NCBI GenBank assembly: GCA_965227515.1
Contig: CBDDFZ010000002.1
Location: 1,152,001 to 1,216,000 of the forward strand
Direction of reading: 5' to 3'
DNA from: Alphaproteobacteria bacterium
GTDB taxonomy: Bacteria > Pseudomonadota > Alphaproteobacteria > CALKHQ01
Length of the DNA stretch: 64,000 bases
The notes beneath the pieces are model-generated. The model was given only the letters and a program-made list of their open reading frames with translations, searched no databases and was not told where the DNA came from. Below are positions 30,997 through 32,150 of this stretch, one piece after another. The position numbers were made by a program, and so were the translations under genes. Numbering within the stretch: position 1 is the first letter of the stretch; the number at the start of each line of letters is the position of its first letter.

Positions 30997-31039
30997 AACT
31001 CATTACGCGAAGTCTGCTCCAGCCCTTGTATCTCATTTT

Positions 31040-31200
31040 GTGGCCGCTGCGGTTATTGTAGCGGTGGCGGAGACGGGCGGGAGGCCGCAAGGCCCTTGGT
31101 CTCGAAGACCGTGGGAGAGCTTGGCACCCTGCCCGTTGTTCCAATGAACCCGAACAGTCGCTTGGTCCGCCGTGCGAGACCGCATTTGCAAGGACGGGTG
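31040..31200 (+). ncRNA. Putative bridge RNA in the IS110 left end
   Basis: 5' stem-loop, then a target loop (CAAGGCCCT 31088-31096, GGGAGAG 31113-31119) and a donor loop (ACAGTCGCT 31154-31162, GCAAG 31188-31192), each closed by stems. Ends approximate. Confidence 0.8.
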
Positions 31201-32133
31201 ATGGAACAGGTTTTCGTTGGCATTGATGTCTCGAAGGCGCGGCTCGACGTGCATGTCTTGCCGTCCGGCCAGAGCTTTGCTGTCGCACGAGACGGTGACG
31301 CTCTGGCAAGTCTTGTCGAGGACCTGGCCGGGCTGTCGCCGGGCCTGATCGTGCTGGAGGCGACTGGCGGCTACGAGGTCACGGTGGCCGCGGCGCTGGC
31401 CACGGCCGGACTGCCGCTGGCCGTGGTCAACCCGCGCCAGATCCGGGACTTCGCGCGTGCCCTTGGCCTGCTTGCCAAGACCGATGCGCTAGATGCCAAG
31501 GCGATCGCGCTGTTTGCCGAGCGGGTCCGGCCCGAGCCTCGGCCGCTGGCCGACACCCAGACCCAGGTGCTCAGCGAGCTGATCGCCCGCCGGCGCCAGA
31601 TCGTCGTCATGATGACCGCCGAGCGCAATCGCCGCAGCCAGCTCACCAGCCGACGCATGGTCAAGAGCGTCGACCGCCTGCTGGCGGCCCTGCAGAAAGA
31701 ACTCTCCGCCCTCGAACGCGAGCTCGATGAGACGATCCGCGGCACACCGGCTTGGCGCGAGGACGAAGACCTGCTCAAGAGCGTGCCTGGTGTCGGCGAT
31801 ATCACCGCCCGTGCGCTGATCGCCGACCTACCTGAACTCGGACGTCTCGACCGAAAGAAGATCGCTGCCCTCGTCGGCCTGGCGCCGTTCAACAGGGACA
31901 GCGGTACCATGCGCGGCAAGCGCACCATCCGTGGGGGACGGCGTCATCTGCGCACAACCCTTTACATGGCAGCCTTGGTCGCCAGCCAACGGAACCCGAT
32001 CCTCAAGGCCTTCTATCAACGCCTGCTCCATGCCGGAAAGCCAAAGAAGCTCGCGCTCGTCGCCGTCATGCGCAAGCTCCTCGTCATCCTCAATGCCATC
32101 ATCAGAGATCGGACCCCATGGCAAAACGCTTGA
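31201..32133 (+). CDS. IS110 family DEDD recombinase/transposase
   Basis: GIDVSK, LEATGGY, NP, KTDALDA, SVPGVG, GLAP..RDSG, GG...[15 protein letters not shown]. Confidence 0.96.
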
Positions 32134-32150
32134 CACAAAAGACAGTCGCT

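Follow-up and report, generated by a model that had tools for sequence, protein, structure and literature searches.

The window analysed here is a stretch of 64,000 nucleotides from the genome of an Alphaproteobacteria bacterium (GCA_965227515.1, contig CBDDFZ010000002.1, positions 1,152,001 to 1,216,000 of the forward strand). Its positions 31027-32150 (+) hold a 1124-bp insertion sequence of the IS110 group, a length that counts in the right CT, following the convention of the initial annotation by which the element was pointed out. Every string quoted in that annotation is present where it had been placed. The element is made up of a 174-nt non-coding left end, a gene for a 310-aa recombinase and 17 nt 3' of the stop codon. 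The left junction reads ..TCCAGCC-CT and then TGTATC (31026/31027); the right end, ACAGTCG-CT (32142-32150), is followed by CTCCCCC. A long left and a short right non-coding end, without long terminal inverted repeats, characterizes the IS110 group (Durrant 2024, PMC11208160), and the 174 nt and 17 nt found here agree with this layout. The core dinucleotide CT stands at both junctions in the four copies that the genome contains, and it recurs in the four guides predicted in the left end: the left target guide (LTG) and the left donor guide (LDG) end in CU, the right target guide (RTG) and the right donor guide (RDG) in AG. The features are collected in Table 1, where REP denotes the repetitive extragenic palindrome.

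Table 1. The IS110-group element, its predicted RNA and its flanks, in positions of the window
Feature	Position	Strand	Basis or remark
Left target half TCCAGCC and left CT core copy (31025-31026)	31018..31026	+	outer end of an arm in a REP-like hairpin
Whole IS110-group element, 1124 bp	31027..32150	+	four full-length copies at 99-100% identity
Right donor (RD) TGTATCT	31027..31033	+	holds the -10-like TATCTC of the predicted circle-junction promoter
Left end, 174 nt, predicted bridge RNA	31027..31200	+	RNAfold and covariance-model matches in relatives
5' stem-loop	31043..31065	+	RNAfold; helix 2: all 9 pairs changed on both sides among relatives
Target-binding stem-loop (closing stem 31069-31081 with 31128-31142; inner hairpin 31097-31111)	31069..31142	+	
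Predicted LTG CAAGGCC-CU = CAAGGCCCU	31088..31096	+	partial identity with the left flank
Predicted RTG GGGAG-AG	31113..31119	+	reverse complement of CT+CTCCC (32149-32155)
Candidate handshake guide of the target loop (CU)	31120..31121	+	position-7 pairing rule
Donor-binding stem-loop (closing stem 31148-31152 with 31195-31199; inner hairpin 31163-31182)	31148..31199	+	
Predicted LDG ACAGUCG-CU = ACAGUCGCU	31154..31162	+	identical to the right end
Predicted RDG AUUUGCAAG	31184..31192	+	pairs with CT+TGTAT
Shine-Dalgarno-like AAGGA, 6 nt before the ATG	31190..31194	+	shares the core-binding AG with the RDG and covers the candidate handshake GA (31193-31194)
Recombinase gene, 310 aa; D9, E53, D95, D98, S234	31201..32133	+	PF01548, PF02371, NF033542, IS621 alignment
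TTGACA, -35 box of the predicted circle-junction promoter, overlapping the TGA stop codon	32130..32135	+	
Left donor (LD) ACAGTCG and right CT core copy (32149-32150)	32142..32150	+	
Right target CTCCC (32151-32155) and remainder of the REP-like hairpin	32151..32213	+	inverted repeat

The recombinase open reading frame (ORF) is free of internal stops and matches both domains of the family: PF01548 (DEDD_Tnp_IS110; E 4.4e-22) over residues 6-146 and PF02371 (Transposase_20; E 4.7e-22) over residues 190-273, the conserved serine included. The NCBIfam model NF033542, "IS110 family RNA-guided transposase", gives 230.4 bits for a cut-off of 140. The best solved relative is the ISCro4 transposase (PDB 9t56; E 9.9e-40, residues 3-307), and the IS621 transposase (8wt6) matches query residues 4-307 with an E of 4.5e-37. 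The motifs GIDVSK, LEATG, KTDALDA and NRDSG align with those of IS621 that hold D11, E60, D102/D105 and S241-G242; the catalytic roles of D11, E60, D102, D105 and S241 are described in Hiraizumi 2024 (PMC11208158). The catalytic residues derived from this alignment are D9 (in GIDVSK), E53, D95, D98 and S234 (in NRDSG), S234-G235 falling on the ESG (S241-G242) of IS621. The initial annotation, which had described a 174-nt non-coding left end preceding an intact DEDD recombinase with an RDSG serine, was right on each of these points. It had also called the protein a compact 310-aa recombinase with a target of its own. Length and target both stand, but the size is nothing special: in a protein-collection search with at least 8000 matches, 115 of the 120 best matches listed are 310 aa long too; apart from the window's own protein, those listed have 72-84% identity. 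With a size range of about 300-460 aa for IS110-family proteins (Durrant 2024, PMC11208160), 310 aa is among the smallest sizes reported.

RNAfold of the left end (31027-31200) gave a minimum free energy of -79.4 kcal/mol (z = -2.81; 1/200 shuffles equally stable) and returned the architecture that had been proposed from inspection, a 5' hairpin followed by two closed loops. In this prediction the hairpin CCGCUGC/GUAGCGG pairs 31044-31050 with 31058-31064. The first loop is closed by ACGGGCGGG/CCCUGCCCGU (31073-31081 with 31127-31136) and carries the inner hairpin GGUCU-CGA-AGACC (31098-31110); the second, closed by ACCCG/CGGGU (31148-31152 with 31195-31199), encloses an internal loop and an inner hairpin. 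The three differences between the left ends of the four own copies are two stem changes that preserve a wobble pair and one change in a hairpin loop.

For a wider comparison, species genomes were scanned; from the 282 relatives obtained, 80 loci at 42-75% identity were kept, most of them from metagenome-assembled genomes (MAGs) of Alphaproteobacteria and Dehalococcoidia. The covariance model R1, built from the four own left ends and the trimmed predicted structure, found the left end upstream of the gene, on the gene strand and over more than 140 nt, in 61 matches among these 80 loci; later counts use the 62 plus-strand matches longer than 140 nt, window included, out of 85 in total. For the structure counts 41 of 81 R1 sources were taken into an alignment of 42 sequences, same-genome repeats and weak or truncated matches being omitted. 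In it 91.0% of the cells are paired, vs 69.7% after shuffling and 36-43% when the partners are slid, and 37/43 base pairs have changes on both sides. Pairing reaches 97.3% and 88.3% of the cells in helices 5 and 6 of the target-binding stem-loop, and 91.9% and 93.2% in helices 7 and 8 of the donor-binding stem-loop. On this comparative evidence, the predicted three-part fold of 5' hairpin, target loop and donor loop is conserved across the relatives. An Rfam scan of 30500-32700, with E up to 1 allowed, matched no family to the plus strand of the left end; matches of microRNA models to the REP hairpin were taken as chance hits on a GC-rich palindrome.

Both sides of the second loop fit the donor. 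The 9-mer ACAGTCGCT (31154-31162) had been reported as identical to the right end at 32142-32150, and the identity is complete (9/9); by simple arithmetic the chance that a given 9-mer recurs in a 10-nt loop side is about 1e-5. Among the 62 related rows, 54 have the first 7 nt of their own LDG plus CT just 3' of the gene, and six distinct LDG 7-mers occur, each present in its own right end. The left ends of most relatives begin with TGTAT. For the other loop side the published guide rule calls for the reverse complement of core and right side (Durrant 2024, PMC11208160). The GCAAG (31188-31192) that had been proposed as complement of the circle junction CT-TG does pair with CT+TG, its fifth base only as G.T, but the full guide is better read as AUUUGCAAG (31184-31192), of which GCAAG would form the 3' part. 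This candidate RDG covers 7 donor bases of CT+TGTAT, with CTTG in Watson-Crick pairs, the next T in a G.T pair, UU bulged, and then AT. The IS621 RDG likewise pairs discontiguously, 9 RNA nt with 7 donor bases (Durrant 2024, PMC11208160). GCAAGG is conserved among the relatives.

In the first loop, GGGAGAG (31113-31119) was said to complement CT-CTCCC, and it is indeed the exact reverse complement of 32149-32155: the predicted RTG matches its own site at 7/7 positions, core included. The LTG, CAAGGCCCT (31088-31096), had been matched to the last 5 nt of the left target plus a possible wobble; it has GCCCT in common with the left flank, and one more G could indeed wobble with T. The identity extends over GCCCT in the window copy and in L002, and over GGCCCT in L003 and L004. 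As read here, the left target guide is short, with 5-6 pairs, core included, and this is normal for the subfamily.

The covariation of guides and targets among other copies and relatives, named in the initial annotation as a check, is strongly positive for both predicted target guides. For the RTG we compared the reverse complement of the guide with the 6 nt after the core, the shuffle consisting of re-dealt flanks. Fifty-one of the 62 rows have a right end and an 8-nt flank; restricted to 8-nt guide segments they give 35 distinct pairs, reduced to 22 distinct guides. The mean match is 5.09/6 positions vs 2.05 +/- 0.27 for shuffled pairs (0/10000 reach the observed value). For the LTG, 40 of the 62 rows have CTTGT[AG]T close to where the model begins, with a sufficient flank, which leaves 22 distinct loops; three offsets were allowed, for real and shuffled pairs alike. 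The match is 4.64/7 vs 3.41 +/- 0.21, again with 0/10000 shuffles at the observed value. Of the 22 lineages, 20, 21 and 18 match at positions -1, -2 and -3, as against only 9 and 7 at positions -6 and -7. The effective left guide of the subfamily is thus short, and the window element is typical in this respect. Targets would be read mostly by the right guide (5 nt + core), with 3-4 nt + core contributed by the left one. Among close relatives the donor loop is kept and the target loop varies, as the bridge model predicts.

Candidates for the handshake guides were sought with the position-7 rule of Hiraizumi 2024 (PMC11208158), applied to 31120 and 31193. C31120 is a possible partner for donor position 7 (the G of ACAGTCG), not for target position 7 (C). 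For G31193 the reverse holds, target position 7 being a possible partner and donor position 7 not. The C that follows the AG of the RTG is kept in most relatives.

If the ends are joined, a perfect TTGACA is followed after 17 nt by TATCTC. In the integrated copy the place of the -35 box reads CGCGAA, and a promoter/terminator scan found 0 promoters and 0 terminators in the integrated stretch 30800-32400. Of the 54 right ends identified in relatives, 51 have TTGAY at a distance of 12 nt upstream of the left donor. Weak expression of the bridge RNA from integrated IS621 loci, reported in a 2026 Nature paper, would fit a promoter that depends on the circle.

The sole Shine-Dalgarno-like sequence ahead of the recombinase ATG is AAGGA, and the 6 nt that separate the two belong to the 3' strand of the donor-loop stem. 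In the window and 24 related loci, R1 runs with its last position right up to the start codon. With AAGGA inside the RDG and handshake segment and a stem reaching up to the ATG, one and the same transcript could not act as a bridge RNA and be translated as well. We suggest, tentatively and as a reading less likely than not, that bridge RNA and translation start are fused in the 1124-bp subfamily, and that a recombinase binding its own leader would shut off its own synthesis. Such an arrangement, if true, would be a built-in limiter of recombinase dose, which IS621, with its longer left end, may lack.

The four full-length copies (99-100% identity) are distributed over both contigs, with differing outer flanks, and each has an intact 310-aa ORF. 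Relative to the window copy, L003 has 10 coding differences (2 of them protein-changing) and L004 has 9 (1 protein-changing). In the orientation of the element all four read CC(A/G)GCC-CT, element, CTCCCCCACCCGGCC, with CCAGCC-CT as left flank in two copies and CCGGCC-CT in two. They interrupt the same CT of a REP-like hairpin arm, which reads ..CC(A/G)GCC-CT-CTCCCCCACCCGGCC when uninterrupted. Insertion of other copies at sites unrelated to GCCCT-CTCCC, named in the initial annotation as an outcome that would refute its reading, was not what the genome contains. Genome-wide (G000) we counted 64 complete REP-like hairpins and 16 arms without partner; the two arms of the hairpin end differently, in CCGGCC or CCAGCC. 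The 10-nt minimal site GCCCTCTCCC has 191 genome copies vs about 47 expected from base composition, and only 4 of them are occupied by this element. The element marks this host REP family, with at least 64 hairpins, as its apparent landing pads. A distant-mode search of the plasmid collection gave no close copy, the best match having 68.5% nucleotide identity. Contigs from two sequencing runs labelled as another organism also hold the element, with 12 differing letters over 1169 in one run; the sequence preceding the left junction disagrees with the window. No RNA run was among the public runs listed, which is no evidence on expression either way. The contigs of runs X1, X2, X3 and X8, compared with 30600-32600, contain neither a joint across the element nor a circle junction, an absence that is uninformative for contigs.

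Remnants of left ends also occur in this genome. At G000:C1:3870887-3870941 (L005) a solo 55-nt left-end fragment, 98% identical, sits at GGCCCT followed by TGTATC and is joined straight to sequence normally outside a REP arm; it looks like a deletion removed the rest of the element together with the hairpin. At G000:C1:1500199-1500287 (L006) there is an 89-nt remnant of a related left end (83% identical), again at GGCCCT followed by TGTATC, whose left target guide differs (CATGGCCCT). The 3' part of the recombinase gene is matched, at 71-79% nucleotide identity, at two further loci, G000:C1:1351065-1351398 and C1:1792751-1793084 (L007-L010), probably as other IS110-family elements of the same genome. 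Many REP loops (e.g. from G000:C1:86188 onward, in the right flank of L004) carry ACGACAGTATCC or its complement, which resembles the left donor ACAGT.. and the right donor ..GTATC of the element; this likeness may be chance or a trace of a link of the REPs to IS110 donors.

The sequence-level features that define IS110-group bridge systems, from the domains and end lengths to the fold, the guides and the CT core, are all present. We read 31027-32150 as an intact, recently mobile element of the IS110 group, to which IS621 and ISCro4 also belong, that would encode a DEDD/serine bridge recombinase and, in its left end, the bridge RNA, and we put the probability of this reading at roughly 0.9. 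By analogy with the IS621 literature, the element would excise as a circle. The joined right and left ends would place TTGACA 17 nt upstream of TATCTC and so drive a transcript of bridge RNA and recombinase, and a recombinase tetramer would hold the bridge RNA. The two RNA loops would then base-pair with the donor junction ACAGTCG-CT-TGTATCT and with the target ..GCC-CT-CTCCC, on both strands of each. S234 would cut after the CT core, strands would be exchanged, and the element would land in another REP arm.

Several observations weigh against this reading. Outside the core, the LTG matches its flank at only 3/7 positions in the window copy and 4/7 in L003 and L004, and IS621 is reported to tolerate even single mismatches poorly. 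The full LTG (AGGCCCTCTCCC) has 0 matches genome-wide, and a better-matching native target in this genome was accordingly rejected. The second base of each candidate handshake dinucleotide misfits the rule. The -10 TATCTC of the junction agrees with the consensus at 3/6 positions and would fail the scan rule that requires T at position 6; because of this weak -10, it is conservation rather than strength that supports the predicted circle-junction promoter. Lastly, the alignment behind the structure counts was fitted to the R1 model, a bias towards structure. We nevertheless find the fold convincing on account of the slide control and of the many compensatory changes.

The short LTG leaves room for a second layer of recognition beside RNA pairing, in which the REP hairpin, as a DNA structure or through a bound host factor, would offset the few pairs available. 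All four copies and both remnants sit in REP arms, the LTG pairs over 5-6 nt only, and a "sequence-structure dual match" is reported for ISPpu10 (bioRxiv 10.64898/2026.03.19.712850). However, 143 of the 191 minimal sites lie within the REP consensus, so that four REP insertions out of four are roughly what pairing alone would give, even if the same fraction can be counted in favour of the hairpin. Moreover RTG, LTG and core together make 10-11 paired positions, near the 11-bp target of IS621. We consider such a layer possible but doubtful.

Far less credible is a sequence-intact fossil, whose copies would have spread by duplication or gene conversion of REP regions and whose left end would now be a mere 5' leader. 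The window copy and L002 are 100% identical, with an identical 68-nt REP remainder and similar 25-nt left flanks; the genome holds two decayed remnants, and the sequencing-run contigs, contigs only, gave no circle junction. Yet the similarity of the two left flanks falls within the outward-extending REP consensus, outside the REP each of the four loci has different flanks, and the copies are spread over two contigs. All four ORFs are intact with mostly synonymous differences, and both target guides still fit the insertion sites, which makes this account very unlikely. Least probable of all is that the left end is a translational or antisense control region, with the matches to ends and target as by-products of terminal repeats: the AAGGA in the second loop and a below-threshold match of the Rfam small RNA model sX15 on the opposite strand would suit it, but in 22 distinct lineages the guide segments vary in step with the flanks and the stems stay paired, and terminal repeats offer no explanation for the fit of the RTG to host DNA beyond the element.

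As a predicted bridge-RNA element, the window element is closest in plan to IS621 of E. coli, compared here with what is set out in the relevant parts of Durrant 2024 (PMC11208160) and Hiraizumi 2024 (PMC11208158). The two have in common the domain pair with aligned D/E/D/D and Ser-Gly, a left-end guide RNA ordered as 5' hairpin, target loop and donor loop, a CT core, a REP-type target and a -35 box in the right end, as well as a discontiguous RDG and the fit of handshake position 7. The IS621 layout with a CT core that had been recognized at the outset thus holds for domains, loops, guides and the CT of all four copies, but not for the guide lengths. The RTG has 5 nt + core here vs 2 nt + core in IS621 (a "four-base RTG"), and the effective LTG 3-4 nt + core vs 7 + core. 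The proteins match only distantly (131 bits; 310 aa vs 326 aa), and the target sequences differ; the RNAs are likened by layout, not base by base. The left end of 174 nt is shorter than the 191-bp left end of IS621, which holds a 177-nt RNA, and the predicted RNA of the window element therefore abuts the start codon. ISCro4 (PDB 9t56, the depositor's name) shares the motifs and has 341 aa vs 310 aa here. ISPpu10 of Pseudomonas putida is an IS110 element with all insertions in one repeated intergenic GC-rich stem-loop sequence (bioRxiv 10.64898/2026.03.19.712850); the likeness is one of description, and the structural gate shown for ISPpu10 would be no more than a possibility for the window element. 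On plasmids of Alphaproteobacteria, genes of the ISMno7 family and others named "IS110 family transposase" cover 87-97% of the query length in the best rows, at only 63.7-68.5% nucleotide identity.

The nearest relatives are 310-aa recombinases in MAGs of Alphaproteobacteria (L011-L033) and in the protein collection (P0002-P0120), at 72-84% protein identity. Their elements are likewise of 1124 bp, with a 174-nt left end and the donor ACAGTCG-CT-TGTATCT, and they differ from the window element, which has its own target, in target loops and flanks (e.g. CT+CACCC, CT+CATCC). Longer RTGs in some orthologues, REP targets for IS110 elements and predicted bridge RNAs in 85.7% of IS110-group elements have all been reported (Durrant 2024, PMC11208160). 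The element is a typical further member of the bridge-RNA systems described in 2024, not an unusual one, and leaves the understanding of how they work unchanged. It would add one more natural bridge recombinase with a readable guide code, comprising donor, target and a candidate handshake position. Its close relatives, with a common donor and differing target loops, would form a natural reprogramming series that could help to set guide-length rules for systems with a long RTG and a short LTG.

Some of these relatives have altered left ends. In the MAG OZ2197xx, the 5' part of the left end has been replaced or truncated in some copies of one element family (L021, L028, L029 and L031). L028 and L029 have a target loop with a shortened left side, the donor loop and the gene being intact; these copies may be decaying. 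In a Dehalococcoidia MAG two bridge-RNA matches, L040 114-274 (-) and 418-577 (+), lie head to head, no more than about 150 nt apart.

The match to sX15, a Xanthomonas small RNA (RF02234), covers window 31067-31207 (-) with 35.5 bits for a threshold of 55. Conversely, R1 matches the strand opposite the published sX15 on the Xanthomonas plasmid pXCV183 (E 2.9e-6; L091 1897-2056 (-) = NC_007507 116396-116555), that is the strand of the antisense partner asX7. A 2011 study (PMC3300014) describes sX15 and asX7 as complementary, with 10 homologues in a Stenotrophomonas chromosome, and an asX7 transcript seen by Northern blot. Since R1 matches the strand opposite sX15 and the two RNAs are complementary, asX7 may be an early sighting of a transcript in the sense of a bridge RNA, from an orphan IS110 left end. 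No IS110-like ORF was recognized by eye after the asX7 locus, those ORFs not having been searched against a family library, and none of the papers listed for asX7, sX15 or RF02234 (15 of 56) dealt with IS110.

Just upstream of the element lies a large ORF, 28960-30996 (+), of 640-678 aa depending on the start, in which no Pfam family was found at E up to 0.001 (29074-30996). The downstream gene, 32356-33327, encodes a pyridine nucleotide-disulphide oxidoreductase of thioredoxin-reductase size.

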